A DNA stretch of 24,000 nt from Opitutaceae bacterium (GTDB taxonomy: Bacteria; Verrucomicrobiota; Verrucomicrobiia; Opitutales; Opitutaceae): contig JAIXVP010000091.1 of the NCBI GenBank assembly GCA_027482905.1, forward strand, positions 7,968 to 31,967. The letters are read 5' to 3'. Below the pieces are notes generated by a model. That model saw only the letters and a program-made list of their open reading frames with translations. It had not been told where the DNA came from and did no database searches. Shown here in pieces: positions 4,579 to 24,000 of this stretch; the stretch's first letter is position 1; the number at the start of each line of letters is the position of its first letter. The position numbers and the translations under genes are program-made.

Positions 4579-5020
4579 CTACGGCGTGGTCACAATCACA
4601 CGGACAAAGGCCGGGGCGATCGAGAGTGCGGGGTGGATGCGGAGGGTGACCGTCTCGGTGACGCCGTCGGGGTTGGCGACTGTCGAGAGCACTTCGGGAG
4701 CGACGGCCGGGGCCGCCCAGGCGAGGAGGTCGGTCGACGTGACGACGGTGTAGGTAAGGCCGCCAGGATTGAGGAGGCGTCGGTGGGTGAAGACGAGGTG
4801 AGGCTGGCCCGTGGTGGGGTGGGCGGAGGTGACGCACGAGAGCGCGGCGGAGGCGTCGGTGACCTGAGGGTCGAGGCCGAAGGCGTATTCGAGCAGGTTG
4901 GATCGGCCGTCGCCATCGGGGTCGCCGAGGCGGCCGTGTTCGGCGAGGGACGAGGCGGGGTCGAGGCCGTGGGCGGTTTCCCAAGCGTCGGGGAGGCCGT
5001 CGGAGTCGGAGTCGGGGGGT
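4579..5020 (-). other. C-terminal module A: DSDSDGLPDAWE, then GDPDGDGRSNLLEYAFGLDP, then about 100 aa ending FVRVIVTTP
   Basis: Read from the translated C-terminus. The DPDGDG...LLEYAFGLDP coding stretch is at about 4867..4927. It is collinear with the C-terminus of the 14858..19573 protein. Confidence 0.6.
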
Positions 5021-8000: not shown

Positions 8001-11000
8001 ACCATTGATAGGTCGGCGAGCCGCCGGTGGCGGTCACGGTGAGGAACGCGTTGCGGGGGAAGAGCTGGGCGGTGGTGGAAGCGGGCTGGATGGTGATGGC
8101 CGGCGGGGCACCAATGGTGAGGGTCGCGGCCGTGCTGTCGGCCGTGCCGTGGGAATTGGACACGCGCACCCAGTAGGACGTGGTCGAGGTCAGGCCGGGT
8201 GGCGTGAAACTGGCGGCGGTGGCTCCGGCGACGGGCTGGGAGGTGTTACCCGCCGGTCCTCGAAACCACTGGTAGGCGAGCGGAGCCGGCCCTCCGGCCA
8301 CGACGAGCAGAGTGACGGTCTGGCCCGACAGCACGGTGGCGGAAGCGGGCTGACCGGTTATGCCGGGCTTGCGACTCAGCAACAAACTGTAACGGGAGGC
8401 GCCGGCGGTGTCGATCTGAACCGGGACGTAGCGATTGGTGGTGGTGCCATCGCCGAGCTGCCCGTTGACGTTGTAGCCGCAGGCCCAGAGCGAGCCGTCG
8501 GATTTAAGGAGAAAAACATGCAGGTCGCCCGCGAAGACGCGCCTGACCCCTGCGGCGAAATTGATGGGGGCGGTAAACACATTGCCCAGTTTCGGTCCTA
8601 TCTGGCCATAGTCGTTGTTGCCCAAGCCCCAGAGAGTGCCGTCCGTTTTCAGGTAGTAGTTGTTTCGTTCCCCGAGCGAGAAATCGATGACCTGGTCGGC
8701 GAGCTGGCGGGGCACGGGCCGGCTGGTCTGGGTGCCGTCGCCGAGCTGGCCATACCAGTTCCGCCCCATGGTCCAGAGGGTGCCGTCGGTCTTGAGGAAA
8801 AGCGTATGAAAGTAGCCGCCGCTTCGCACCGCCGCGACTCCGGACGCGACCTGGACGGGGACCGGGCGCCGGGTGGTGGTGCCATCGCCGAGCTGGCCTT
8901 CGGAGTTCCCGCCCACGCCCCAGAGCGTGCCGTCGGTTTTTAGGAACAGGGTGTTTTCCTGGCCCGCGGCGGCCTGAACGACGCCGGTGGCGAGCTGGAC
9001 CGGCGTGGCCCGGTCGGTGGTGGTGCCGTCGCCGAGCTGACCGGCGGTGTTGCGGCCCATCGCCCATAACGTGCCGTCCCTCTTCACAAACGTGCAGTGA
9101 TAAAACCCCATGGCGACGTGGGCGACATTGGTGGCGACCTGCACCGGTATGGAGCGGTCGGTGGATGTGCCGTCGCCGAGCTGGCCATAGCCGTTGTAGC
9201 CGCAGGTCCAGAGAGTGCCGTCGGATTTGAGGAAGGCCGTCTGACTCGAAGCCGAAACCTGGACCACATCGAAGACAGCCTGTGTCGGTGTGAGATGGTC
9301 GGTGGTGGTGCCGTCGGCGAGTTGTCCGCCGAAGTTTCCGCCCATGCCTTTGAGATTAAGCGCGGAGGAGGATTGCACCGCCACCGTCGCCCCGCTTTCG
9401 ACCGCGCCGACGTAGTTGGATACCCTTACCCAGAACGAACCGCCTTGGGTGAGGGGAGGAGTGAGGAACAGGGGGCCGGTCGCGCCCGCGACCGGCGCGG
9501 CGGTATCGCCAACAGCGCCGCGATACCATTGGTATGCGATGGTTCCGAAACCGCTCGCCTCGACCTTCAGCACGGCGTTCTCCATGGGGCCGACGGTCGA
9601 GTCGGACGGCGGCGCGAGGATCGTGGGCGGCGCCGGCCTCAGGACCGTAAGGAGCGTCGGGCGCGTGACGCTGCCCCGGCCATTGGTGAGATTGGCGATG
9701 GCAACGCCGTCGGTATAGGTGCCCTCCGGCAGGGTTCCGGCGGAGGGGGCCATGGTGACGGTGAGCGTGGTGGCGGCCCCGGGTGCGAGCTGACCGCCGG
9801 GAGATGAAAGGGTGAGCCAGGGCTGGGTCTTGAGCGCGGACCAGGTGATCGGAGTCTTGCTGAAGTTGGAGACGGTCCAAGTGGCGGAGGCGGGGTCGAA
9901 AGGCCCGCCGGCGGGACCGACGGGAGAGAATCCCGAAGGGCCGGCAACGAGTAGCTTGTCGAGCGCAAGCAGGGCCGAACGGGCGTTGAGGCGTCCGCCG
10001 GAAAGCGTGACGGAGGCGAGCGAGGGGCGGGGATCGACGGAGGAAAGCAGCAGGTGCTTCAACTGGGCGGCCGAAAGAGGCCCGGAGGCGTGTGAAAGCA
10101 CCAGCGCGGCGGTTCCGGCGACGTGGGGAGCGGCCATGGAGGTGCCGCTCATCGACTGATAGCCACCGTTGCGGACCGTGCTGTAGATGTTCAGACCTGG
10201 GGCGGCGAGATCGACGCTGGCGCCATAGTTGGAAAACACGGCGAGCTGATCGTCGTCGTCGGTCGCGGCCACCGAAACGATGTTGTCCAGTTCATAGCTG
10301 GCGGGGTAGCGCGGATCGAATTCCGAATCTATGCCATCGTTGCCGGCGCTGGCGACGAAGAGGCGCCCGGCCGCGCCTGCCGCGCCGATGGCGTCGCGCA
10401 GGGCCTGGGAGGAGCCGCCGCCGCCCCACGAGTTGGACGTCAGCTCGAAGCCCATGGCGGTGGCGTAGGAAACGGCCTCGACCGCGTCGGAGGTGAAGCC
10501 GGAACCGGGGGCGGAGAGAAATTTCAGGGGGACGAGGCTGACCTTCCAATTCACACCCACGACGCCGAGGGCATTTCCACCGACGGCGCCGATCGTGCCC
10601 GCGCAGTGGGTGCCGTGGTCATGGTCGTCCATGGGATCGTTGTCGTTGTTGAAAAAGTCCCAGCCATGCACGTCGTCCACGTAGCCGTTGCCGTCGTCAT
10701 CGACGAAGTTGCCGGCGATCTCGCCGGGGTTGGTCCAGATGTTGGCAGCGAGGTCGGGGTGGGTGTAGTCGATGCCGGTATCGATGACGCCGATCCGGAT
10801 GGAGCGGGAACCGGTGGCGATGTCCCAGGCTTCGGGGGCGTCGATATCGGCGTCGGCGGTGCCGCCGGTCTGGCCGGTGTTGTTCAGGCCGTAGAGTTGG
10901 GCGTAGGACGGGTCGTCGGGCGTGAGCGTCGTGTGGACGACAAAGTCCGGCTCGGCGATTTTCAGGAGGCCGCCGAGGTGGCGGAAATCGTCGATGGCGG

Positions 11001-11661
11001 CAGGAAGGGCGTCGAGGGTGCCGCCCGCAACGGCGACGAGCCAGGTGCCGGAGGCGGGTTTACTGGAGCGGACGGAACCTCCGGCGGCGGCGACGGCGGG
11101 CAGGAACGCCGCCTCGTCTACCCCGGGGGCGGGTTTGATGATGAGGTGGTCCGCCACCATGCCAAGCTGGGCGACGAGCGTGGCGCCGCCGGTGGCGGGA
11201 TCGAGTCGGTAAGCCTCCTCGAGACGGATAAAGGGATACTTTAGGCGGGCGTCGCGAACCAGCCGCACGCGCAGGCGCAGAGCGCGGTCGGGGAGGTCTT
11301 GCGCAGCCTCGGCAAGGACTTCGGCGCCGGCCCAGCGGTCGATCACGGCGGGCTTGGTCGATGAGGCGCGGAAATTGTCCGGCAGGCCCAAAAGACGCGG
11401 CAGGGGCTCCGGGGCGGGCGCGGCTCCGGGGACGGCAGGCGGGAGGGCGGCCGAGACAGGGCTCGCGGCCGGGGGAAGGACGGACACCGGCGTCGACGAA
11501 GCTCCGGCGGTCGTTGCGGTCGCCGGGGGCGGTGCGGGTTGGGAGGCGGCTAGCGAAATCGCCGGATTGCGCCGGGGTAGGGCCAACCAGAGACCTGCGA
11601 TACCTACGAGCAGGGCGAGCAGACCGGCGACGCCGCGGCGGGTGAAACGAGGGGAAGACAT
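4579..11661 (-). CDS. Giant (2360 aa) membrane-anchored or secreted S8 subtilisin-like serine peptidase with RCC1 beta-propellers and Ig-like domains
   Basis: The ATG is at 11661. The N-terminus has a hydrophobic anchor (GVAGLLALLVGIAGLWLAL) and a Pro/Ala-rich linker. A propeptide-like region ends in AEPDFVVH. The S8 triad motifs are GVIDTGIDYTHPDL, HGTHCAGTIGA and SGTSMAAPHVAG. These are followed by a beta-sandwich, six Ig-like domains with YQW[YF][RL]G, 21 RCC1-type blades (G.N..GQLGDGTT...P..V), and an Asp-rich C-terminal module. Confidence 0.9.
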   Translation of the reverse strand: MSSPRFTRRGVAGLLALLVGIAGLWLALPRRNPAISLAASQPAPPPATATTAGASSTPVSVLPPAASPVSAALPPAVPGAAPAPEPLPRLLGLPDNFRASSTKPAVIDRWAGAEVLAEAAQDLPDRALRLRVRLVRDARLKYPFIRLEEAYRLDPATGGATLVAQLGMVADHLIIKPAPGVDEAAFLPAVAAAGGSVRSSKPASGTWLVAVAGGTLDALPAAIDDFRHLGGLLKIAEPDFVVHTTLTPDDPSYAQLYGLNNTGQTGGTADADIDAPEAWDIATGSRSIRIGVIDTGIDYTHPDLAANIWTNPGEIAGNFVDDDGNGYVDDVHGWDFFNNDNDPMDDHDHGTHCAGTIGAVGGNALGVVGVNWKVSLVPLKFLSAPGSGFTSDAVEAVSYATAMGFELTSNSWGGGGSSQALRDAIGAAGAAGRLFVASAGNDGIDSEFDPRYPASYELDNIVSVAATDDDDQLAVFSNYGASVDLAAPGLNIYSTVRNGGYQSMSGTSMAAPHVAGTAALVLSHASGPLSAAQLKHLLLSSVDPRPSLASVTLSGGRLNARSALLALDKLLVAGPSGFSPVGPAGGPFDPASATWTVSNFSKTPITWSALKTQPWLTLSSPGGQLAPGAATTLTVTMAPSAGTLPEGTYTDGVAIANLTNGRGSVTRPTLLTVLRPAPPTILAPPSDSTVGPMENAVLKVEASGFGTIAYQWYRGAVGDTAAPVAGATGPLFLTPPLTQGGSFWVRVSNYVGAVESGATVAVQSSSALNLKGMGGNFGGQLADGTTTDHLTPTQAVFDVVQVSASSQTAFLKSDGTLWTCGYNGYGQLGDGTSTDRSIPVQVATNVAHVAMGFYHCTFVKRDGTLWAMGRNTAGQLGDGTTTDRATPVQLATGVVQAAAGQENTLFLKTDGTLWGVGGNSEGQLGDGTTTRRPVPVQVASGVAAVRSGGYFHTLFLKTDGTLWTMGRNWYGQLGDGTQTSRPVPRQLADQVIDFSLGERNNYYLKTDGTLWGLGNNDYGQIGPKLGNVFTAPINFAAGVRRVFAGDLHVFLLKSDGSLWACGYNVNGQLGDGTTTNRYVPVQIDTAGASRYSLLLSRKPGITGQPASATVLSGQTVTLLVVAGGPAPLAYQWFRGPAGNTSQPVAGATAASFTPPGLTSTTSYWVRVSNSHGTADSTAATLTIGAPPAITIQPASTTAQLFPRNAFLTVTATGGSPTYQWYRGAIGNTSAPVVGATSALLVVPSLTATTSFWVRITTVGGTVDSTAAAVTVPSPQSFNLLATGSNGSGQFGDGTAGSATVPRPVGAGVTHASAAYGHSLFVKSDGTLWAAGYNANGQLGDGTTTSRSTAVQISSQVARVSAGREHSLFLKTDGTLWGMGSNANNRFASGTTADRLSPVQIAAGVVHMSAGHRHSLFVKSDGTLWSVGENIYGQLGDGTTVSRSTPIQVATGVVQCAAGSDHSIFLKVDGSLWGMGYNYEGALGDGTSYSRLTPVLTNTGVTSIAAGIRTSFFIKADGSLWASGQNTDNKLGDGTYTNRLTPVQISTGVVQVFTGYYHNLFLKTNGSLWGMGNNYSGALGDGTTTSRAIPVQVATGIGNAVPGNFFSFFFSLKPAFVTQPAPASILYGESTTLSVVVNDQSPLTYQWYLGQAGSTTSPVAGATGASFTTPALTAPTSYWVRVTNSLGLTADSTTASVTVILNTPPSITAQPVPVATPFFASASFAVGAAGGTLSYQWYRGLSGDTSAPVSGANGPMLLTPPLLATTSYWVRVSNPVSAINSDTVTATVTPRPALNLKASGQNDYGQLGDGTTTQRNAPVSVATDVVAASTSSGHTLFIKTNATLWAVGNNNHGQLGDSTTTSRLTPVQVATNVIACFADSEISLFLKSDGSLWGMGYNSYWRLGSGSASNIQTPIQIATGVAHFAVGYTHTLFVKNDGTMWGMGTNFDGQLGIGAATGSTVPVQIAAGVSRVEARGQSSFFIKTNGTLWAMGDNYGGQLGDGTSTDIRSPVQISSDVISVATGGGHTLLIKRGGVLLGMGYRIGLGLPDTSLYMTPTQLATGITHAAAGFDHSKFIKTDGGLWAMGNNVAGQHGDGTTAWRYTPVQVSLAVLDVSLAYYHSLFLQSPPPNITSHPTSRTVKAGDVVSLTVAAVSPITASYQWYRGLSGDLTQPIASATSANYVTAPITTTNSYWVRVTNALGTADSQAALVTVLPPPDSDSDGLPDAWETAHGLDPASSLAEHGRLGDPDGDGRSNLLEYAFGLDPQVTDASAALSCVTSAHPTTGQPHLVFTHRRLLNPGGLTYTVVTSTDLLAWAAPAVAPEVLSTVANPDGVTETVTLRIHPALSIAPAFVRVIVTTP
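5020..9640 (-). repeat. Three tandem supermodules of about 1.5 kb, each encoding Ig-like domain, 7-bladed RCC1 propeller, Ig-like domain
   Basis: Approximate unit bounds are 8110..9640, 6560..8107 and 5020..6559. I counted 7 blades in each propeller from the translated protein. YQW[YF][RL]G markers lie near 9520, 8265, 8000, 6725, 6455 and 5180. A 20-nt exact repeat gccgcgataccattgatagg occurs at 6445..6464 and 7993..8012. Otherwise the units look diverged. Confidence 0.8.
9980..10860 (-). other. S8 peptidase catalytic domain within the giant ORF (approximate bounds)
   Basis: I mapped the catalytic codons by hand. Asp294 is at 10782..10780 (IDTG), His349 at 10617..10615 (HGTH) and Ser508 at 10140..10138 (GTSMA). 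The Asn of the oxyanion region is consistent with SNSWGG. Confidence 0.85.
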
Positions 11662-14857: not shown

Positions 14858-17800
14858 GTGAGAATACCCCCGCTCATTGCCGCAGCCTTGTCGTCGTTAT
14901 TGTTGGGCCCGGCCGCGCACGCCGTGCCCGCGTTTCCCGGCGCGGAGGGATTTGGCGCCAACGCCAAGGGCGCCCGGGCCTCGGCCAGCCCCACCGTCTA
15001 CCGCGTCACCAACCTGAACGATTCCGGCGCCGGCTCGCTCCGCGACGCGGTGAGCGCCTCCGGCCGCGTGGTGGTTTTTGATGTCGGCGGCATCATCCGG
15101 GTGGGCTCCCCGATCGTCTTCGCCTCCAATCTCACCATCGCGGGCCAGACCGCGCCGGGCGGCGGCGTCACCCTCTACGGCAACCGCGTGTCCTTTTCCG
15201 GCGCGAACAACACGATCTGCCGTTACGTGCGTTTCCGCATGGGCATCGACGGGGACGACGGCGCGGACGCGGTCGGCATAGCCAACGGCAGCGACATGAT
15301 CTTCGACCACGTATCCGCTTCCTGGGGACGCGACGAGACCTTCTCCATCAGCGGCGACGCCGCCATCCGCATCACGCTCCAGGACTGCCTGATCGCCCAG
15401 GGCCTGCGCATCCACTCCGCCGGCGGCCTGATGCAGACCTCCGGGGGCGTGAGCATTTTCCGCACGCTCTACGCCGACAACTACATGCGCAACCCCAAGG
15501 TCAAGGGGGTGAACGACTACGTGAACAACGTGGTCTACAACTGGGGTTCCGGCGGCGGCTACATCCCGGCGGGCGATTCGGCCGGCGACTCGTTCGCCAA
15601 CGTGGTGAAGTGCTACTTCATCGGCGGACCCGAATCCGGGGTCGGCCGTTCCCCTTTCACGTCGGGCAACACCAACTACCGTCTCTTCCACACGGGCAAC
15701 CTCCAGGATCTAGACCTCGACGGCGTGCTCGATGGCGTCGCGGTGACCAACACGAGTTTCCCTACCCTCCAGCTCGTCGGCACGCGCTTTGCCTACCCCG
15801 CGCCGACGACCGAACTCTCCGCCCCCGCCGCGCTCGCCTGGGTGTTGGATCGGGCCGGCGCCTCGCACCGCCGCGACCGCACGGACGATTACGTGGTGGC
15901 GGAGGCCCGCACCTACGGCACCGGCGGCGTCTTTATCTACGACGAAGCCGACATGGGCGGCGTCGGCACCGTCGCCGCCGGCCTGAAGCAACCCGACAAC
16001 GACAACGACGGCATGCCGGACTGGTGGGAACAGGCCGCCGGGACCAACCCCGCCGTCGCCGACGCGACCGTGCTCGGCGCCGACGGTTACCTGAACATCG
16101 AACGCTACCTCAACGCCCTCGTGGTCGGCGGCGTGCCCGGGGCCTTCATCACCGGCATCACGAGCGACACCGGCGCGTCCGCCTCCGACGGAATCACCTC
16201 CGACCGAATGCTCGTGCTGCGCGGCACCGCGCCCGTCGGATCCAGCGTTTCCCTGGCCCGCGCCGACCTCGGCGTGCTCGGCACGGTCGTCGCCGACGCG
16301 AACGGGCAATGGACCTACGATTACGCCGCCACGTCGCTGGCCGACCGGGTGTATGCGTTCACCGCCGGCGCCACGGTGGGCGGAGTCGTCACTCCGCCGT
16401 CGCCCGCGCTGGTCGTTCGTATCGACACCGTCGCCGCCCCCGCCCCGGCGATCACGGGCTTGAGCCTGGCCCCGGGGGCGGCGGTTTCCGGCACCGCCAC
16501 GCCGGGCGACACCGTTGCCGTAACCCTCGCCGGACAAGTGGTGGCCACCGGCGTGGCCGACGAGTTGGGCAACTGGACCGCGCCCTACACCGGACCCGCC
16601 CTCGGCGCGGGGCAAAAGACCTTTACCGCCGCCGCGACCGATCTGGCCGGCAATCCCGGCCCGGCCTCCGGCGCCTACGTCGTGGACACCGGCCTGGCCG
16701 CGCCGGTTTTCACCGCGATCAGCACCGACAGCGGCGCGTCCGCCTCCGACCGCCTGACCAACGACGCCACGCTGGTGTTGTCCGGCACCGCGCCGGCCGG
16801 CGCGACCGTCAGCGTCACTCGCGCGGGCGTCGGCGTCGTGGGCTCCGCGGTCGCGACCGGCGGCGCGTTTTCGTTCAGCTACGCCGCGACCACGCTGCCG
16901 GCCGGGACGCACACCTTCACCGCCACCGCCGGGCTCGCGGGTTCCGCCAGCCCGGTGTCCGCGCCCTTCGTGGCGACGATCGACACCACCGCCCCCGCCA
17001 TCGCCTCCCTGCGCCGACTCACGCCCGCGACCTACTCGACCAACGGCGGCGGCGTGGTCTACCGGGTCACCTTCGCCGAGCCCGTCACCGGCGTGGACTT
17101 GGCCGACTTCACGCTCACCCGGTCGGGCACCGCCGGCTCGCTCGCCTCGGTCGCGACGGTGAGTTCGACCGTCTACGACGTCTCCGCCGCGAATCTATCC
17201 GGCGACGGCACCGCGCGGCTGGACCTCAGCGCCAGCGGCACCGGCATCCTCGACCTCGCGGGCAACGCCGTCTCCGGCGGCTACACCGCCGGGCAAGCCT
17301 ACACCGTCCGCCTCGCCGGCAGCGGCGTCTGGATAAACCTCGATAATGACGGCCTCTGGAGCGACTCCGCCAACTGGGACGGCGGCCTACTCGCCGGCGC
17401 CACCGGCGCCACCGCCGACTTCGGCCTGCGCGATCTCGTCGCGAACACCACGCTGATCCTCGACTCCAATCGCACCCTAGGGCGTATCGTTTTCGGCGAT
17501 ACCGATTTCTCCACGCCGGCCGGCTGGACGGTCTCCGACGGCGGCGTTTCCTCACGTGTCCTCACCTTGGACGGCACCTCCACGCCGGTCATCCAGGTTG
17601 ACGCCGCCACCACGCCGGCCGGGGACACCACCGACGTCCCCGCCGCCAACGCCACCCCGCACCACCTCGCCGTCGCCCTGGCGGGCGGGAAGGGCTTCAC
17701 CAAAACGGGCGTCGGCACCTTGGAGCTGAACCGCCCCAACCCCGCGCTCGCCGGTGCGCTGACCATCTCGAAGGGCATCGTCCAGGTCGGCCCCGGCGGC

Positions 17801-19573
17801 ACGCTCGCGCCCGCCTCGGTGAGTATCGCCACCTCGCAACAACTCCGCGTCACGGGCGGCGCGTTCACCACCGCCGGCAACGTCTCGTGGACCTCCGGCA
17901 CCGGCACGGGCGTTATCGTGAGCGCCGGAACCGCGAGTTTCCAAAACATCGTGCCGTCCAACGCGCGCAACAGCTTCCTCCGCGTCACCGGCGGCGTGGT
18001 CACCGCGAAGGACCTTAACTTCCCCCGCAGCGGCGACTCGGAGGCACAGACCAGCGGGACCGGCGTATTGATTTCCGGCGGCGACACGACCTTCGCGAAC
18101 ATCGGCCTGGGCACAGTCGACTCGTGGGCCGGCATGACCATCTCGGGCGGAAAACTCACCGTGACCGGCACCCTGCACAACGGTTACCAGAAGACCGCCG
18201 GGCGCGGCGGGGTGATTTACCTTTCCGGCGGCGAACTCGCCGTGACCGGCGCGACCAACGGCCTGGTGATGGCGCGCAACCCCGGCGGCACGAACGCCAA
18301 CACCAACAACGTCGCCAAATTGATCATCACCGGCGGCGCCGCCAATCTCGCCAAACTCACGCTCGGCTACGACGCGACCTCGAGCGCCGGCTCCGCGAGC
18401 GTCACCGTGAGCACCGGAGAGCTGAACCTCGGCGCCGGCGGCATCGTGAAAAACGGCGCGGCGGGGCTCGCCTCCTCGTTGTCCTTCGCCAGCGGGACCC
18501 TCGGCGCCCTGGCCGACTGGAGCACCACGCATCCGCTTTCGATCACCGATACCTCCGCCACGCCGCTCTTCTCGATCCGCGCCGCCGGACCCGACGGCGC
18601 GCCGCACGACATCGCGCTGAACGGCGTCGTCTCCGGTGCGGGCGGCTTCAACAAGACGGGCGGCGGCACGCTGACCCTCTCCGCCGCCAACGCGGTGGCG
18701 GGCAACATCCACGTCAACGCCGGCACGCTCAACCTCACCGGCTCCCTCGCCGCCGCCTCCGGCCGGTCCCTCGTGGTCAACGCCGGCGGCACGCTCGCCG
18801 GCACCGGCACCTCGAACGTCCTGCTCGGCTTGTTCCCGGGCGGCACGGTCTCCCCGGGCGGAAACGCGGCGGGAACGCTCACCGTGGCGGGCGGGCGGAT
18901 CTCCGGCGGCTCCACCCTGCGTTTCAACCTGGGCGCGGGCGGCGACCAACTGGTCATCCCGAGCGGCTTTACCTATTTCGGTTCCGGCCCGGTGACCTTC
19001 GCCTTCACCCCGGGAACGCTCGTGGTTGGCACACCCTACACTTTGATCACCACGCCCGGCGGAACCGCCGGCATCACGACCGCCAACCTCGCCTACACCG
19101 GCTTGGGCTACGGCAAGGGGCACTTCACGATCGGAACGAGCGGCATCCAGTTCACGTTGGACGACGACGGGGTCGCGCTGGCGCCGTTCTACGATTGGTT
19201 GACCGGACGCGGGCTGGCCGCCGACCCGGCCGCCGCGACGGGCGATCCCGACGCCGACGGCATGGCGACGCTGCTCGAGTTCGTGTTCGGCCAGGATCCG
19301 CTGCTGCCCGACGTGGCGCAGCTACTCGCCACCACCATCGTGGCGAACCAGGAGACGTATCCGGCGATCAGTTACCGACGTCGCCGGGGCCGGGGTGGCA
19401 TTGCCGTGGCGGTCGAGGCCGCGCGCGACCCGGGTTTCGTCACCCCGCTGGCGCTGGTGGACGTATCGGCCCCGGCCGAGCCGGACGGCTTCGACCGTGT
19501 GCTGGTGCGCACGGCGCTGCCGATGTCGAGCGAGGCGCGTCAGTTTTTCCGCGTCCGGGCCAGCTTGCCCTGA
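14858..19573 (+). CDS. Giant (1571 aa) secreted PL1-like pectate-lyase-fold protein fused to bacterial Ig-like repeats and autotransporter-associated beta-strand repeats
   Basis: The GTG at 14858 gives the signal peptide MRIPPLIAAALSSLLLGPAAHA. The N-terminal domain is AFPGAEGFGANAKG...VYRVTNLNDSGAGSLRDAV...LTIAGQTAPGGGV...RYVRFR...IFDHVSASWGRDE...MRNPKVKG..YVNNVVYNW, the pattern of PL1-type pectate lyases. It is followed by DNDNDGMPDWWE, adhesin-type Ig repeats, GFTKTGVGTLELN and GFNKTGGGTLTLS repeats, and a C-terminal module. Confidence 0.85.
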   Translation: MRIPPLIAAALSSLLLGPAAHAVPAFPGAEGFGANAKGARASASPTVYRVTNLNDSGAGSLRDAVSASGRVVVFDVGGIIRVGSPIVFASNLTIAGQTAPGGGVTLYGNRVSFSGANNTICRYVRFRMGIDGDDGADAVGIANGSDMIFDHVSASWGRDETFSISGDAAIRITLQDCLIAQGLRIHSAGGLMQTSGGVSIFRTLYADNYMRNPKVKGVNDYVNNVVYNWGSGGGYIPAGDSAGDSFANVVKCYFIGGPESGVGRSPFTSGNTNYRLFHTGNLQDLDLDGVLDGVAVTNTSFPTLQLVGTRFAYPAPTTELSAPAALAWVLDRAGASHRRDRTDDYVVAEARTYGTGGVFIYDEADMGGVGTVAAGLKQPDNDNDGMPDWWEQAAGTNPAVADATVLGADGYLNIERYLNALVVGGVPGAFITGITSDTGASASDGITSDRMLVLRGTAPVGSSVSLARADLGVLGTVVADANGQWTYDYAATSLADRVYAFTAGATVGGVVTPPSPALVVRIDTVAAPAPAITGLSLAPGAAVSGTATPGDTVAVTLAGQVVATGVADELGNWTAPYTGPALGAGQKTFTAAATDLAGNPGPASGAYVVDTGLAAPVFTAISTDSGASASDRLTNDATLVLSGTAPAGATVSVTRAGVGVVGSAVATGGAFSFSYAATTLPAGTHTFTATAGLAGSASPVSAPFVATIDTTAPAIASLRRLTPATYSTNGGGVVYRVTFAEPVTGVDLADFTLTRSGTAGSLASVATVSSTVYDVSAANLSGDGTARLDLSASGTGILDLAGNAVSGGYTAGQAYTVRLAGSGVWINLDNDGLWSDSANWDGGLLAGATGATADFGLRDLVANTTLILDSNRTLGRIVFGDTDFSTPAGWTVSDGGVSSRVLTLDGTSTPVIQVDAATTPAGDTTDVPAANATPHHLAVALAGGKGFTKTGVGTLELNRPNPALAGALTISKGIVQVGPGGTLAPASVSIATSQQLRVTGGAFTTAGNVSWTSGTGTGVIVSAGTASFQNIVPSNARNSFLRVTGGVVTAKDLNFPRSGDSEAQTSGTGVLISGGDTTFANIGLGTVDSWAGMTISGGKLTVTGTLHNGYQKTAGRGGVIYLSGGELAVTGATNGLVMARNPGGTNANTNNVAKLIITGGAANLAKLTLGYDATSSAGSASVTVSTGELNLGAGGIVKNGAAGLASSLSFASGTLGALADWSTTHPLSITDTSATPLFSIRAAGPDGAPHDIALNGVVSGAGGFNKTGGGTLTLSAANAVAGNIHVNAGTLNLTGSLAAASGRSLVVNAGGTLAGTGTSNVLLGLFPGGTVSPGGNAAGTLTVAGGRISGGSTLRFNLGAGGDQLVIPSGFTYFGSGPVTFAFTPGTLVVGTPYTLITTPGGTAGITTANLAYTGLGYGKGHFTIGTSGIQFTLDDDGVALAPFYDWLTGRGLAADPAAATGDPDADGMATLLEFVFGQDPLLPDVAQLLATTIVANQETYPAISYRRRRGRGGIAVAVEAARDPGFVTPLALVDVSAPAEPDGFDRVLVRTALPMSSEARQFFRVRASLP
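14924..15870 (+). other. Pectate-lyase (PL1-like) right-handed beta-helix catalytic domain (approximate bounds)
   Basis: Motifs are as listed for the parent CDS. The FDH.SASW..DE and RNP.....NN..YNW segments correspond to the conserved vWiDH and RxPxxR regions of PL1, with Lys at the second basic position (RNPKVK). Confidence 0.65.
16147..16990 (+). repeat. Three adhesin-type bacterial Ig-like repeats
   Basis: Repeats 1 and 3 are clearly homologous: ITSDTGASASDGITSDRMLVLRGTAPVGSSVSLAR...GQWTYDY and ISTDSGASASDRLTNDATLVLSGTAPAGATVSVTR...GAFSFSY. An exact 18-nt repeat ggcgcgtccgcctccgac lies at 16172..16189 and 16733..16750. The middle repeat is GTATPGDTVAVTLAGQVVATGVADELGNWTAPY. Confidence 0.7.
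17330..19120 (+). repeat. Beta-helix region with autotransporter-associated beta-strand repeats (approximate bounds)
   Basis: It shows recurrent Gly/Thr/Ala-rich beta-strand periodicity. Hallmark units are GKGFTKTGVGTLELNRPNPALAGALTISKGIVQV (about 17686..17810) and GAGGFNKTGGGTLTLSAANAVAGNIHVNAGTLNLTG (about 18637..18750). Confidence 0.65.
19175..19573 (+). other. C-terminal module B: GDPDADGMATLLEFVFGQDP, then about 95 aa ending FFRVRASLP
   Basis: Collinear with module A of the S8 giant protein: GDPDGDGRSNLLEYAFGLDP vs GDPDADGMATLLEFVFGQDP, and AFVRVIVTTP vs QFFRVRASLP. Confidence 0.6.
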
Positions 19574-19600
19574 TAGCCGCAACAGCCAGTGGCGAACCGG

Positions 19601-20371
19601 CTAGGTGGCCCGCCGAAGGGGGAAAATCGAAACGCTCACACCGGGCGAGGTGTGGGCGAGATCGGCAGGGCGAGAGGGCGCCGGGAAACCGTTGTCGGCA
19701 AACAGGGAGGTTTCGGCGGTGGTGACGGCGGCGCGGGCGAGCGGGTAAGGCGTGTGCCAGACCCGGCCGCTGGCAAGCGAGCCGTCGCGGCGGCGGGAGA
19801 AAAGCAGGTAGCGCTCGGCGAGGAAGTATTCGAGCGTGCCGGGTTCGGAGGGCCTGAAGGGGGCGGCGGGCGCGTAGGCGAAAGCGTTGGGTGCGCCGCC
19901 GGGGCGGCGCGAGTGGAACCGGGCAGGCCCGGTCGGCGCGGCGGGGCGTTTGCCGTGCTGGTGCGCGAAAACGTAGGGTAGGGAAAACAAGGTGCGGGCG
20001 AGCGCGACGGCGACGTGGTTGTTGCAGTCGAGGGAGTAGAACCAGACGCCGGGCGTGCCATCGGCGGTGTGGACATAGGTGCGCAGGTTCAGTTCGAGGA
20101 ACCAAGACAGGCCCGGAACGGGCGGGAGAAAACGCGGGCGGACACGATCCATCCAGAAGGGAACGACTCCGAGGTAGGCGCGGTCATCGTGCGTATCGAC
20201 GAAGAGCCCGGGCGGAAGGGTGGCCTGGATGGCGGCGGGGTCCCAGGCCCAGTGGAGAAAGAGCAGGTGGCGCCAGCTCTGGAACATCACCGGGCTGGAA
20301 GCGGGACGGAGACGCAGGGCCTCGCGTTGAGCGGCGGAAGGGCGGGAAAAGCGGGATGAGCCGGCGGTCAT
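19601..20371 (-). CDS. DUF2071 (YqjF-like) family protein
   Basis: The ATG at 20371 (MTAGSS...) was chosen inside track ORF 19601..20380. FQSWRHLLFLHWAWDPAAIQATLPPGLFVDTHDDRAYLGVVPFWM matches the W..L.F.HW..D...L...LP.GL..D...G.A.....F.M signature I associate with DUF2071. Confidence 0.7.
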   Translation of the reverse strand: MTAGSSRFSRPSAAQREALRLRPASSPVMFQSWRHLLFLHWAWDPAAIQATLPPGLFVDTHDDRAYLGVVPFWMDRVRPRFLPPVPGLSWFLELNLRTYVHTADGTPGVWFYSLDCNNHVAVALARTLFSLPYVFAHQHGKRPAAPTGPARFHSRRPGGAPNAFAYAPAAPFRPSEPGTLEYFLAERYLLFSRRRDGSLASGRVWHTPYPLARAAVTTAETSLFADNGFPAPSRPADLAHTSPGVSVSIFPLRRAT

Positions 20372-20428
20372 GCGCGGCAACTTGCGCGCCTCGTGCGCGA
20401 TTGCAAAGCGACCGGTCGCCGTCCCGCC

Positions 20429-22051
20429 TCAATTCCGACTGGCGCGGGCGAGGCGGATGGTCTCGGCGGCGGTGAGCGTGCGCGCGCCGGCCGCGCGGGT
20501 CTCGCGCGCGATCCGCCAGGCCAGATGCCACTGCCGGCACAGCACCGCCCAGCCGTGGAGCGGCCCGTGACGGGGGTCGTAGATGCTGGTGGCCTCGGAA
20601 GTGAGGCCGTTGAGCTCGATCACGGTGAACTCGCCGCGGCGGAAGGCCTCCGCGTCGGGCGTGCGCACGTCGTAGCGGCCGAAATGGAAACCCTGGAAAA
20701 CCCGGCTGACGCGTTCGACCTCGTCGAGCAGGGCCGGGGTCTCGTGGTGCGCGCCGTCGAGGAAGAGCGAGCCGCGGCAGTGGGTGCCCAGATCGGTCAG
20801 CGGGATGCGTTCGCCGGCGGCCGGCACCCCGTCGCGGCGGGCTGCGAACTGGCGCAGGAAAAAATCCGCCATGCACACGGCTCGGTCGTCGGCGAGAATC
20901 AGCGTTTCCAGATTCCGGATACCGTCGCCGGTCAGCGTGGGGGTGCGCTTCTCGGTGATGGCGAAGATCCGGCCGCGCGTTTCAGACGGAAGGCGGACGT
21001 AGAAGACGCCAAACTCGATGCCGGGCACGTAGGCCTGGGCGATGAGCGGGCCGGGGGCGGCGGCGAGGGCGGCCTCGGCGGCGGCGCGGTCGCGGGCGAT
21101 GACCACGCCGCCGCCGCGTTCGCCGACGTCGGGCTTGAGCACGACGGGAAAGGGCGCGGGGCGGGCGGCGAGGAAGGCGTCGAGCGCGGCGCGGCGGGCG
21201 GAGGCTTCGCCGGGCGCGATCAGGGCCCAGGGCGCGACCGCCCCGCTGGGATCGAGGGCGCGGAGGATGGCCGATTTGGACTCACCGACCAGGCCGCCGC
21301 CGGCGTCGATGCCGGGGTTCACGGCGGTGAACCAGGTGAGGCAGCGGACGCGCAGACCCAGCCAGGTGATCCACAGCACGACCGGCGGGTAGACGGCCCA
21401 CATGGGCCAGAATTCCCAACGAACGAGGCGGCGCCACCGTGAGAGCAGAAGCCGGCGGCCGCGCCAGGTGGCGGCCTGAAGACCGACACGGACGAGCAGC
21501 CAGACCAGCAGGCCGCCGAGGACGAGGCCGGGCGCGGCGGCGGTCCAGGTTTGCAACCAGGCGCGGGCGGTGTCGCCGAAGACGGCGGCGGCGCCGACCA
21601 GCAGGGGCGTCCAGAGCGCGCAGGCGAGGGTCAGCCAGAGGGCGAGGCGGGCGAAGGGCACGCGTAGGAGGCCGGCGGCGACGTAGGTCGGCAGGCGCGT
21701 GCCGGGCAGAAACCGGGTGGTGAAAATCAGGATCGCGCCGCGCTCGGATAGCCAGAGGGCGGCGCGGTCCACGCCCTCGCGCGTGACGAACCAGCGCAGC
21801 GGGGCGCGGTCCAGCCAGCGCGCGCCGAGCCAACGCCCGGCGGCGACGAGAGCGACGTCCCCCACGAGGATACCGACGAGGCAAGCGAAGGTGGCGGCGG
21901 GGAAGGAAATCGCGCCCTGAGCGACCAGCAGGCCGGCCGCGATGCAGGCGAGGTCCTCGCTGGCGAGCGTCGCGAGCGCGAGGCCAAGCAGTGTCCACGG
22001 ACCGCCCTCGGCCGCGAGAGCAAGACTGCGATCCACGAAGGCGGCGAGCAT
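20429..22051 (-). CDS. Fusion protein: N-terminal DedA/VTT (SNARE-associated) membrane domain plus C-terminal ATP-grasp carboxylate-amine ligase domain
   Basis: The ATG at 22051 (MLAAFVDRSL...) lies 14 nt after the upstream stop. The DedA motifs are ASEDLACIAAGLLVAQG and IFTTRFLPGTRLPTYVAAGLL, followed by further TM segments. The ATP-grasp region is FPVVLKPDVGERGGGVVIA...AQAYVPGIEFGVFYVR...EKRTPTLTGDGIRNLETLI...GRYDVR...FTVIELNG. The 174-aa N-terminal extension of track ORF 20429..22573 overlaps the NRDE gene in another frame and was rejected. Confidence 0.75.
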   Translation of the reverse strand: MLAAFVDRSLALAAEGGPWTLLGLALATLASEDLACIAAGLLVAQGAISFPAATFACLVGILVGDVALVAAGRWLGARWLDRAPLRWFVTREGVDRAALWLSERGAILIFTTRFLPGTRLPTYVAAGLLRVPFARLALWLTLACALWTPLLVGAAAVFGDTARAWLQTWTAAAPGLVLGGLLVWLLVRVGLQAATWRGRRLLLSRWRRLVRWEFWPMWAVYPPVVLWITWLGLRVRCLTWFTAVNPGIDAGGGLVGESKSAILRALDPSGAVAPWALIAPGEASARRAALDAFLAARPAPFPVVLKPDVGERGGGVVIARDRAAAEAALAAAPGPLIAQAYVPGIEFGVFYVRLPSETRGRIFAITEKRTPTLTGDGIRNLETLILADDRAVCMADFFLRQFAARRDGVPAAGERIPLTDLGTHCRGSLFLDGAHHETPALLDEVERVSRVFQGFHFGRYDVRTPDAEAFRRGEFTVIELNGLTSEATSIYDPRHGPLHGWAVLCRQWHLAWRIARETRAAGARTLTAAETIRLARASRN

Positions 22052-22065
22052 GGCGGGGGCGCGGA

Positions 22066-22794
22066 TCAGGCCGGGCGCGGCAGGGTCCAAACCCGCACAG
22101 GACTCGCCTCGGGATAAAACGTCTCGTAGGCCACGGTGGCGGCGGAGGGGCGGACGTTCACGTGGATGAGACTGCGGGTGGCGGCGTCGGGGCGCGCCAT
22201 GCGCACGGAATGGGCGGGGCGGGTAGGATCGTGAATGCGGTGCCAGGCGGCGAGATCGGCTACGGAGGGAGCGTCGGCGCGGGCGGCGCGTAAGGCGGCG
22301 AAGTTTTCCAGACGCCAGTCCACCACCTCGGCGGTGGCGAAGGAGGACGAGGAGAGGCAGGCGGGCGAGGCCAGCGCCCCGGCGGTGAACGCGATGCCGT
22401 TCCAGTGCCAGTGGCTGGCGGAGGCGTCCGGCGCAACGGCCACGAGGTGGAAAGGCGGTAGTTCGACGAGAGCGACGGCGGCGAGGCGGGTGGCGACGGC
22501 GGCGAGGTCGCGGGCGGGGGCGAGGTCGAGCACGAGGCGGCCGCGGCTGCGGGCGGTGCCGGCCGGGCGCCACGAGGAGGCGTAGTCGTTTAGCAGCGCG
22601 AGCGTGAGCCCGGCGGCGCTGACCAGCAGCCAGGTGCCGCCGGCGTCGGGATCACGCGGGGCGAGCCAGCGGAGGCCTTCGCTTTCACCGAACGCGGGCG
22701 GCGTCTCGACCGCGCGCGGGTGGCGTTCGTCGCGGTTAAAAAAGAGATCGTAACCGAGGCGGTCGGACGCGGCGGTCCAGGTGAAGGTGCACAT
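22066..22794 (-). CDS. NRDE-family (TANGO2-like, DUF833) protein
   Basis: The protein starts MCTFTW, giving Cys2 as in NRDE/TANGO2 proteins. It carries the eponymous motif in DLFFNRDER, then GGTWL. The length is 242 aa. A GGGAGA Shine-Dalgarno-like element lies about 12 nt upstream of the ATG at 22794. Confidence 0.8.
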   Translation of the reverse strand: MCTFTWTAASDRLGYDLFFNRDERHPRAVETPPAFGESEGLRWLAPRDPDAGGTWLLVSAAGLTLALLNDYASSWRPAGTARSRGRLVLDLAPARDLAAVATRLAAVALVELPPFHLVAVAPDASASHWHWNGIAFTAGALASPACLSSSSFATAEVVDWRLENFAALRAARADAPSVADLAAWHRIHDPTRPAHSVRMARPDAATRSLIHVNVRPSAATVAYETFYPEASPVRVWTLPRPA

Positions 22795-22812
22795 CGGCCC
22801 GGCGAATCTCCC

Positions 22813-23340
22813 TCAGCCGGCGGCCTGGGTGGCCTGGTGGCGAAGGGTGGAGGGCGCCATGCCGAAATCGGCGGCGGGCTGGTGGCCGAGGCGGGTGCAG
22901 ATGACCGCGATGAGCGCGTAGTGGTGGATGGTGTGGCTCAGGAGGAACTCGAGTTCGCGCGACACACTGGAGGCGGACCAGGAGTCGGCGCCGGAAGAGG
23001 GCGGATTTTCCATCCGGACGCGCACGGGGTGATCGGCGGAGGAGGAGGCGAGGGTCGCCTCGAGGCGCTCGGCGACGAGCGCGAGGCAGGCGCGGGCGTG
23101 GGCGCACTCGCGCTCGATGCGGAGATCGCGGGCACGTTTCTCGTAGTCGATGCCGGCGGCGTCGCCGAGGCCGTCGAGGAAACTCGTGTAGTGCTCAAGG
23201 ACGTGGCGGAGGTGTCCTCCGACGGTGGAGTTGAACACGGCGGGATCGCGGGCGGCGTAACCGGCGGGGTCGAGGGTGGAGAGGAGCGCGATGCCCTGCT
23301 GGACGACGGCGAGGTTGGCGCGGATGGCTTGGGCGATCAT
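22813..23340 (-). CDS. DinB-superfamily (DinB_2-like) four-helix-bundle protein
   Basis: The His pattern is typical of the DinB metal triad: GGHLRHVLEHY near the N-terminus and LSHTIHHYALI near the C-terminus. The protein is 175 aa, and the ATG is at 23340. Confidence 0.7.
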   Translation of the reverse strand: MIAQAIRANLAVVQQGIALLSTLDPAGYAARDPAVFNSTVGGHLRHVLEHYTSFLDGLGDAAGIDYEKRARDLRIERECAHARACLALVAERLEATLASSSADHPVRVRMENPPSSGADSWSASSVSRELEFLLSHTIHHYALIAVICTRLGHQPAADFGMAPSTLRHQATQAAG

Positions 23341-23390
23341 GGGCGGTTTGGATCCGGTTGACCGGTGGAGCGAGTGCGTCCGGGGACTTG

Positions 23391-23834
23391 TTATTTTTCA
23401 AGGAGCTTCGGCCAGTTGGCGTTTCCGGCGGCGATCAGGCCGGGCACGTCCTTTTCCCATTTCTTCTGAACCTCGAGGCTGTAATTCAGGTAAAGTTTGC
23501 CCTCCACGATCTTCCAGGCGGCGGGATCGATGCCGGCGGTGTAGCCCTGGCTGACGGCCCAGGCGCAGTAGCCGCCGAACTGGGGCGCGTATTTCGCGGG
23601 TTCGGCCTTGAACAGCGCGAGGTGCTCGGCGGAGGCGAAGCGCCAGGTGGCGCCCTGCCATTCGAAGGAAAACGCCTTCTCGCCTTCGACGGGTTTGGCG
23701 TCGGTGAAGTAGGCGACGGGGTCGTAGCCCTTGATGGCGACGCCGAAGAGGGTGGTGTTGACCGGCTTTTCGGCGCGGAGGAACGGCGTGCAGACGAGGG
23801 CGAGGCCGGCGAGGAGGAGGCGGAGGATTTTCAT
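23391..23834 (-). CDS. Secreted YHS-domain protein, the Cys form of the family named 'YHS domain-containing (seleno)protein'
   Basis: The signal peptide is MKILRLLLAGLALVCTPFLRA. It is followed by AIKGYDPVAYF...G...F...W.GA.WRFAS.EH...F..P.KYAPQFGGYCAW, the YHS-domain pattern. The protein is 147 aa with a TAA stop at 23391. Confidence 0.8.
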   Translation of the reverse strand: MKILRLLLAGLALVCTPFLRAEKPVNTTLFGVAIKGYDPVAYFTDAKPVEGEKAFSFEWQGATWRFASAEHLALFKAEPAKYAPQFGGYCAWAVSQGYTAGIDPAAWKIVEGKLYLNYSLEVQKKWEKDVPGLIAAGNANWPKLLEK

Positions 23835-23859
23835 GATGAGGTGGAAAACGTGGATTGGT

Positions 23860-24000
23860 TCAGAGGCGGGCGCCGATCACGGGCAGCGTGCGGCGATGCA
23901 AAAACAGCAGGAGGGCGCTGCCGGCCCAGACCACGACGGCGAGGGCGAAGAGGGTGCCGCCGTCGTCCTGGACCACGATGCCGAGTTTCGTGACATGGAA
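23860..24000 (-). CDS. C-terminal 46 codons of a hypothetical, probably membrane, protein; the gene continues past the window end
   Basis: My hand translation of the minus strand gives ...FHVTKLGIVVQDDGGTLFALAVVVWAGSALLLFLHRRTLPVIGARL*, with the stop at 23860..23862. It contains a hydrophobic segment. It lies 25 nt upstream of the YHS gene on the same strand. No family was recognised. Confidence 0.35.
   Translation of the reverse strand, partial: FHVTKLGIVVQDDGGTLFALAVVVWAGSALLLFLHRRTLPVIGARL

Follow-up and report, generated by a model that had tools for sequence, protein, structure and literature searches.

The window analysed here, a stretch of 24,000 nucleotides from an Opitutaceae genome, contains on its minus strand a gene whose product (P0001) joins a DedA/VTT membrane domain to an ATP-grasp ligase domain. 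A first-pass annotation of this DNA had read the two domains as parts of one open reading frame (ORF), and this reading is borne out: the 540 codons run uninterrupted from an ATG at 22051 to a TGA at 20431-20429, with no internal stops, and the homologues are colinear. The gene and the parts of its product are as follows:

20429..22051, minus strand: VTT/DedA-ATP-grasp fusion gene (protein P0001), a single ORF of 540 amino acids, stop codon included
21467..22000, minus strand: DedA/VTT membrane domain, residues ~18-195, supported by PF09335, invariant motifs, an alignment with paralogues, helices of the AlphaFold2 model and positive-inside counts
21320..21466, minus strand: junction module, residues 196-244, an Arg-rich amphipathic helix and a WEFWP...YPP hydrophobic hairpin
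20492..21319, minus strand: ATP-grasp ligase domain, residues 245-520, of the CphA G domain/GshF type, with a GDG lid insert

The ATG at 22051 was assigned as the start because the starts of the homologues cluster near M1 (within about 20 residues of it in the alignment) and because an extension to a GTG at 22573 would overlap the neighbouring TANGO2 gene. This GTG was rejected: the 174 added residues are Arg/Pro-rich, overlap TANGO2 (22066-22794) out of frame and are missing in the homologues. A scan of positions 19400-24000 for promoters and terminators gave matches not above chance expectation.

HMMER searches returned 4,500 representatives at E<=0.001 and, at E<=1e-30, 1,104 representatives at 50% identity, nearly all of them colinear over both domains and distributed over at least five phyla. 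A frameshift or missed stop, either of which would have split the gene in two, was not found, and the same colinear architecture recurs in thousands of proteins and in 80 genome loci. The fusion is a real and ancient feature, carried by cultured organisms such as Rariglobus hedericola, Horticoccus sp. 23ND18S-11, Opitutus sp. GAS368 and Puniceicoccaceae bacterium K14. No study of a DedA-ATP-grasp fusion protein was found in the literature searched, in agreement with the first-pass annotation, which knew of no characterised example.

Architecture of the fusion protein

The N-terminal half is recognized by PF09335 over residues 40-154 (E 3.5e-13), and its 50.6 bits pass the cut-off of 33.9, so that profile searches uphold the earlier DedA/VTT assignment. 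Conservation was assessed in an alignment of 30 sequences from Verrucomicrobiota, Acidobacteriota, Gemmatimonadota, Pseudomonadota, Bacteroidota and Latescibacterota. The two DedA signature motifs noticed previously, E32-D33...G40 and R113-F114-x-P116-G117-x-R119...G127, are present and invariant throughout, as is D65; R113 and R119 are spaced six residues apart. The domain is laid out as a first re-entrant loop (with E32-D33), a transmembrane (TM) helix at 50-77 carrying D65, a K/R-rich loop at 78-112 and a second re-entrant loop (R113-F-x-P-G-x-R119), followed by TM 133-160 and TM 168-195 as judged by helix pattern and the AlphaFold2 model.

In an alignment, these motifs coincide with PGD and RFxPxxR of the genome's stand-alone DedA paralogues, and we take the membrane-embedded acidic and basic residues to be the equivalents of YqjA E39/D51 and R130/R136. 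With the DedA/VTT family (YqjA/YghB, UptA, TMEM41B/VMP1) the fusion thus shares an above-threshold PF09335 match and the charged motifs of the re-entrant loops, but it departs from the family in the upstream Glu, which is absent from the canonical position and replaced by an adjacent E32-D33 pair. The fusion copy is an extra, specialised and enzyme-fused paralogue, beside four stand-alone VTT genes in the window genome. The best NCBIfam match of the VTT domain is the undecaprenyl-phosphate transporter UptA (NF052604, E 2.2e-15); orthology with UptA was ruled out, as 57.2 bits are far below the equivalog cut-off of 250.

The curated Pfam ATP-grasp models stay below threshold on the C-terminal half (RimK, 13.7 bits with a cut-off of 21; ATP-grasp_3, 13.7 bits with a cut-off of 23.2), and the NCBIfam cyanophycin synthetase model matches residues 289-385 with E 1.4e-5. 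At 23.4 bits versus a cut-off of 877 this match covers the G-domain-like part alone, and membership of the full cyanophycin synthetases (CphA1) was rejected. A profile of the family searched against PDB retrieved CphA2 (7ta5, 2.4e-9), CphA1 (2.4e-8), GshAB (1.5e-5) and Ddl (1.7e-5). An AlphaFold2 model of the full-length protein, built on the family alignment (mean predicted local distance difference test, pLDDT, 85.2), recovered the ATP-grasp fold, and Foldseek matched it to the CphA1 G domain, CphA2, GshF and many Ddl structures (E 3.6e-8 to ~1e-5, probability 1.00). The subtype that the first-pass annotation had left open is therefore the group of cyanophycin synthetase G domain, GshF and Ddl.

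All residues expected to hold ATP and Mg are invariant: K306 (in VLKPD), G310/G313 of the Gly-rich loop, E346 and the Mg ligands D461, E479 and N481, together with R459 and the GDG lid insert G375-D376-G377. In CphA1 and CphA2 they correspond to the VxKP, GxxG, D and ExN positions. The domain, described earlier as complete-looking, accordingly looks functional rather than dead, as does the DedA half. With the CphA1/CphA2 G domain and GshF it has in common the lysine of VxKP, a Gly-rich loop, the GDG insert of the lid and the Mg ligands of D...ExN, but CphA1's N domain and Mur-like M domain are missing, and the protein is embedded in the membrane through the hairpin and the DedA domain. It begins at an ESK motif (residue 257) straight after the membrane hairpin, with no N-terminal pre-ATP-grasp subdomain, and the canonical three-subdomain ATP-grasp layout was rejected for this reason. 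CphA1, CphA2, GshF and Ddl couple the amine of an amino acid to a peptide-like C-terminal carboxylate.

Between the two domains lies the most constrained part of the protein. The ratio of nonsynonymous to synonymous substitution rates (dN/dS) between the window and the close relative G115 is 0.148 overall, 0.150 in the VTT domain, 0.145 in the ATP-grasp domain and 0.033 in the junction. Residues 196-212 form the Arg-rich helix WRGRRLLLSRWRRLVRW, and residues 213-236 (WEFWPMWAVYPPVV...) the Trp/Pro-rich hairpin, in which E213, F214, W215, P216 and Y221 are invariant. The hairpin has a mean hydropathy of just 0.45 and seems to enter the cytoplasmic leaflet but not to span the membrane.

Across the alignment, K and R residues together average 6.0 for loop 78-112, 6.3 for helix 196-212, 0.9 for the N-terminus and 0.8 for loop 161-167. 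By the positive-inside rule, the K/R-rich loop and the junction are therefore predicted to be cytoplasmic and the N-terminus to lie outside, which would place the ATP-grasp domain in the cytoplasm, as the first-pass annotation had supposed, provided that the hairpin stays non-spanning. Some relatives have a third domain: a basic stretch, a single anchor helix and an alpha/beta hydrolase (with a GFSMGG nucleophile elbow) precede the VTT domain. From this domain order the hydrolase is predicted to face outside, which is consistent with an N-out VTT domain. Taken as modelled, P0001 would be a single inner-membrane enzyme.

Gene neighbourhoods and domain variants

The ORFs around the fusion gene in the 80 genome loci were clustered without prior labels. 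The recurrent neighbours were Acetyltransf_5 (PF13444), a PlsC-type acyltransferase (PF01553), DinB_2 and TANGO2; no peptidoglycan, lipopolysaccharide (LPS) or phospholipid-synthesis gene was recurrent in these neighbourhoods. The neighbouring acyltransferases have the OlsB, OlsA and OlsF models as their best NCBIfam matches, at full length and under the equivalog cut-offs. Partners within 6 kb were counted in the 51 loci with at least 4 kb on each side. An OlsB-like gene, or an OlsF-like fusion in its place, was present in 40 of the 51, an OlsA-like gene in 33, DinB in 36 and TANGO2 in 34.

The order of these genes differs between lineages. It is DinB-TANGO2-fusion-OlsB-OlsA in Opitutaceae, where the operon is headed by an extracytoplasmic function (ECF) sigma factor and an anti-sigma factor, then DoxX, YHS and DinB, and OlsB-OlsA-DinB-TANGO2-fusion in Blastocatellia and Gemmatimonadota. 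Thermoanaerobaculia have OlsB-OlsA-fusion together with a Ferric_reduct-Rieske gene and without DinB, TANGO2, DoxX or YHS, and a fused OlsF-like gene takes the partner role in Bryobacterales and is also a direct neighbour in some Opitutaceae. Since the linkage persists despite this rearrangement, a functional tie between the fusion and the aminolipid genes is indicated. At the genome level, PF13444 was found in 25 of 34 fusion-bearing versus 23 of 117 fusion-less genomes of Opitutaceae (151 genomes), and in 16 of 17 versus 19 of 134 in Acidobacteriota (151 genomes).

Further genes recur beside OlsB/OlsA and the fusion in Thermoanaerobaculia and Bryobacterales (L072:3409-5306 and its equivalents). 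They encode the Ferric_reduct-Rieske fusion and a ~340-amino-acid unannotated protein, as well as a GMC oxidoreductase, a pectinacetylesterase-like protein and a separate alpha/beta hydrolase; these may be additional lipid-tailoring enzymes.

The domain composition of the family also varies. The form with the N-terminal alpha/beta hydrolase (~850 amino acids) occupies 26 of the 51 long-flank loci, and the window protein is the two-domain form; searches of the window genome for a separate copy of this hydrolase gave generic alpha/beta-hydrolase matches alone. VTT-less forms of 370-430 amino acids, consisting of the Arg-rich helix, a WEYWP hairpin and the ATP-grasp domain with its catalytic residues intact, occur in several Opitutaceae and Acidobacteriota:

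L089:6981-8114 (G073): VTT-less form of 377 amino acids; others in G016, G026, G151, G225, G190 and G175; all in aminolipid operons

The operon of G073 reads DinB-TANGO2-DoxX-YHS-[ligase]-OlsB-OlsB-OlsA and has no adjoining DedA gene. In the acidobacterial genome G254, a VTT piece with an internal TGA lies immediately upstream of a ligase piece. To the question raised earlier, whether split versions exist, the family thus offers truncated ligases without a VTT domain in the same operons and one case of adjoining pieces. Because natural VTT-less forms sit in these operons, the VTT half is dispensable for the core ligase. The junction is retained in them (for example in the 377-amino-acid protein), and the comparison of forms identifies a membrane-hairpin ligase as the conserved core, with the VTT domain and the hydrolase as its putative accessories, usually fused.

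A different set of variants, 487 amino acids long (L091:6200-7700 in G013; also G098, G144 and G096), keeps the VTT domain and the junction and has a shortened, diverged ATP-grasp domain (~32% identity over 188 amino acids). OlsB, DinB and TANGO2 are not nearby, and these proteins may be a paralogous subfamily with another role.

A putative head-group amide ligase and its alternatives

From its domains and its neighbours, the fusion protein probably modifies a membrane lipid. More specifically, we hypothesize that it is a ligase that uses ATP to form amides on the head groups of N-acyl amino-acid lipids, and that a flippase-type domain is coupled to it, a proposal that we hold about equally likely to prove right or wrong. 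The ATP-grasp domain would phosphorylate the carboxylate of a membrane-anchored amphiphile presented at the hairpin, and an amine (an amino acid or taurine) would attack the acyl phosphate to give an amide. Among candidate carboxylates, the alpha-carboxylate left free in N-acyl(oxyacyl) amino-acid lipids of the ornithine kind would be the most probable. The membrane hairpin would replace the usual N-terminal substrate-holding subdomain of ATP-grasp ligases, and the VTT domain would move the substrate or the product between leaflets. In the relatives that carry it (about half of the long-flank loci), the outward-facing serine hydrolase, which the window form lacks, could trim the exported lipid.

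Among known systems MprF comes nearest in design, but the comparison with it drawn in the first-pass annotation holds for the layout and not for homology or chemistry. Both layouts combine a cytoplasmic C-terminal head-group enzyme, in the fusion a proposed one, with an N-terminal polytopic domain of a translocating or putatively translocating kind. However, the MprF synthase and flippase families are not among the Pfam matches at E<=0.1, which consist of VTT_dom, RimK and ATP-grasp_3 only. MprF transfers aminoacyl groups from tRNA as esters, whereas the fusion would form amides through an acyl phosphate; MprF has a flippase domain of its own and acts on phosphatidylglycerol, whereas the fusion has a DedA/VTT domain and is associated with aminolipids of the OlsB/OlsF type. 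Periplasmic aminoacyl-phosphatidylglycerol hydrolases are encoded beside mprF, a parallel to the hydrolase of the three-domain relatives. OlsF likewise unites steps of an aminolipid pathway in one polypeptide, but its two domains are acyltransferases and it has neither ligase nor transporter. The fusion is best described as a synthase-plus-flippase design assembled from ATP-grasp and DedA parts, with its biochemical role a well-supported hypothesis.

A reaction of the proposed kind has been described. The transfer of taurine to the carboxyl group of ornithine lipid, which gives cerilipin in Gluconobacter cerinus, was found to be ATP-dependent in the 1970s and its gene is unknown; lipids with Ser-Gly and Orn-Ser-Gly head groups also exist (2026 review, PMC12971839). 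The cerilipin taurine transferase has to link an amine to the carboxylate of an aminolipid head group at the expense of ATP, which is the chemistry that an ATP-grasp enzyme provides, and the gene neighbours of the fusion also suit steps of this sort.

The co-travelling TANGO2 homologue could contribute a further step. In the related loci, 49 of 51 TANGO2 homologues start with MCT(x)(S/T)W, a pattern consistent with Cys as the N-terminal nucleophile. The crystal structure of human TANGO2 (2026) suggests a Cys-type N-terminal nucleophile (Cys-Ntn) hydrolase (PMC13044924), and binding of acyl-CoA by TANGO2 was reported in 2025 (PMC11867700). With its conserved N-terminal Cys, the bacterial homologue might act in this pathway as a Cys-Ntn amidase or acyltransferase. 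We would put forward only tentatively the reading that joins these elements, in which the fusion is the missing ligase that extends aminolipid head groups by placing taurine or an amino acid on the ornithine-lipid carboxylate, with its own DedA flippase and with the TANGO2 step as a further extension.

Amino-acid lipids stand in for phospholipids in many soil and aquatic bacteria, the enzymes that make amide-extended head groups are unknown and the passage of these lipids across the inner membrane is unexplained; the fusion is a testable candidate for both head-group amidation and crossing. If that tentative reading is correct, ATP-grasp enzymes would gain their first known member that acts on a membrane lipid, and the poorly understood DedA superfamily its first domain with a defined, enzyme-coupled cargo; with the TANGO2 step added, a human disease protein family would be tied to N-acyl amino-acid lipid metabolism. 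The steady linkage of TANGO2 to aminolipid genes may bear on its disputed function, for which this companionship offers a bacterial handle.

Several observations weigh against an aminolipid substrate, and the clearest come from the window lineage itself. The window genome, a metagenome-assembled genome (MAG; 87% complete, 457 contigs), has no PF13444, PF19576, OlsB, OlsA or OlsF by hidden Markov model and tblastn searches, which gave a generic PlsC-like match alone. The window locus was rejected as a member of the aminolipid operons, as the gene downstream of the fusion is a DUF2071 gene instead of an adjacent PF13444 gene. In the close relative G115 (L004; 99% complete, 40 contigs), the arrangement is unchanged and OlsB/OlsF are likewise missing. 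No OlsB/OlsF was found in two more well-assembled Opitutaceae, G007 (99% complete) and G023 (98%), both of which have an intact fusion, and G007 also has no detectable TANGO2, for which the sensitivity of Pfam is low. The rule that every locus has either OlsB or TANGO2 held in the 51 loci and was rejected, as G007 breaks it at the genome level. The acyltransferase scores below the equivalog cut-offs leave the amino acid of the head group undefined even in relatives, and the co-occurrence counts, which come from related and hence not independent genomes, describe a pattern.

In every OlsB-less form, all 31 of the 31 checked motif positions are intact. As the fusion is kept under purifying selection in OlsB-less genomes, the protein can work without OlsB-type lipids, and its substrate range must then exceed the classical ornithine lipids. 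The OlsB-less lineages are scattered over the tree, with fairly long branches, and seem to have been decoupled from OlsB several times independently. For the window lineage, the comparison of loci indicates a loss of the OlsB/OlsA genes beside the fusion, which itself stays selected. The earlier suggestion of an ATP-dependent modification of a membrane-embedded or exported substrate therefore gains from the operon linkage to OlsB/OlsA/OlsF and from the genome linkage in two phyla, and is qualified by the absence of OlsB/OlsF in the very lineage from which it was made.

These genomes argue for a different membrane carboxylate, that of a free or 3-hydroxy fatty acid, of phosphatidylserine or of a polyprenyl-linked cell-wall precursor, which we nevertheless consider unlikely. 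In its fatty-acid version, the protein would be an OlsB-independent N-acyl amino-acid synthase, or would serve salvage: the hydrolase releases, the DedA domain flips in and the ATP-grasp domain re-ligates. An outward hydrolase and an inward ligase would suit such a loop, intact and selected copies persist in genomes without OlsB/OlsF (one of them also without TANGO2), and the best NCBIfam match of the VTT domain is UptA (2.2e-15). However, this match, with 57 bits versus 250, does not denote an orthologue, none of the 80 neighbourhoods shows a recurrent gene for peptidoglycan, LPS or phospholipid synthesis, and the closest structural relatives use amino-acid or peptide carboxylates, not fatty acids. 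Such a substrate would also leave unexplained the linkage to OlsB/OlsA/OlsF, which is independent of gene order and extends over several phyla.

The Opitutaceae operon, with its ECF sigma/anti-sigma pair followed by DoxX, YHS and DinB, could also be viewed as a stress module (DoxX, YHS, DinB, TANGO2) under ECF sigma control, in which the ligase forms a soluble small molecule, for example a dipeptide, a short poly-amino acid or a thiol-type compound, that the VTT domain exports, and the aminolipid genes are merely co-regulated. DinB-fold proteins are often thiol-dependent, the nearest folds include the glutathione-forming GshF and the polymer-forming CphA, and the DinB-TANGO2-fusion trio persists without OlsBA. 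Against this, the subdomain that would hold a soluble substrate is missing and an invariant membrane hairpin is found instead, kept even where the VTT domain is absent, and the Thermoanaerobaculia clusters contain OlsB/OlsA and the fusion but no DinB, TANGO2, DoxX or YHS. To our knowledge, no DedA protein exports peptides, and we regard a soluble product as quite improbable.

Transporters are commonly fused to nucleotide-binding domains, and the ATP-grasp domain could in principle be a regulatory or energising ATP-binding module of a DedA transporter rather than a ligase. This is very improbable: the VTT-less forms retain every catalytic residue and their place in the operon, the substrate-handling residues and the lid insert of CphA-type ligases are conserved, and we know of no ATP-grasp motor. 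An artefact of frameshift or mis-assembly, or a remnant decaying after loss of OlsBA, to which the fragmented MAG, the missing OlsBA, the fragmentary ECF/anti-sigma genes of the close relative and the longer branches of the OlsB-less lineages might point, is already effectively refuted by the colinear architecture in thousands of proteins and 80 loci, the absence of internal stops, a dN/dS of 0.15 in both domains between two OlsB-less genomes and catalytic residues that are all intact.

Surroundings of the fusion in the window

The upstream synteny of the Opitutaceae operon (YHS, DinB, TANGO2, fusion) is retained in the window. The genes adjoining the fusion are:

19601..20380, minus strand: DUF2071 gene, immediately downstream of the fusion (PF09844, E 1e-66)
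22066..22794, minus strand: TANGO2/NRDE-family protein, beginning MCTFTW, 14 nt upstream of the fusion (PF05742, E 1.3e-8), single copy in the genome
22813..23340, minus strand: DinB_2-family protein (PF12867, E 1.1e-6)
23391..23834, minus strand: YHS-domain protein (NF041384, 'YHS domain-containing (seleno)protein', E 4.6e-51), with synteny in L001, L002, L088 and L094

The DUF2071 gene sits in the slot used by OlsB/OlsA in most relatives and is followed by a convergent gene for a 1,571-amino-acid surface protein. Among all loci searched by tblastn, DUF2071 was found in L004/L094 only, and as the arrangement is thus confined to the window genome and its 89%-identical relative G115, it was rejected as a recurrent partner. 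Its product has a weak acetoacetate-decarboxylase-like match and is under purifying selection (dN/dS 0.16).

In Opitutaceae, the YHS gene accompanies DoxX, DinB, TANGO2 and the fusion behind the ECF sigma/anti-sigma pair. The corresponding region of the window falls past the end of the sequence at 24000. In G115 (L094:10634-11016), the ECF sigma factor and a match to the DUF3379 anti-sigma factor are found as fragments only (31 and 68 amino acids), which suggests that the regulators at the head of the operon have eroded there. The L004 record (CAMCZZ010000012.1) is a MAG labelled 'Akkermansia muciniphila'; its taxonomy is that of the window genome's genus and its operon is of the Opitutaceae type, with 89% protein identity, so the label looks wrong.

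The window also encodes two giant surface-type proteins. The convergent one (14858-19573, plus strand; 1,571 amino acids) carries Big_13 and PATR repeats and is also found downstream in L004. The other (4579-11661, minus strand; 2,360 amino acids) has a subtilase domain followed by RCC1 repeats and immunoglobulin-like domains.

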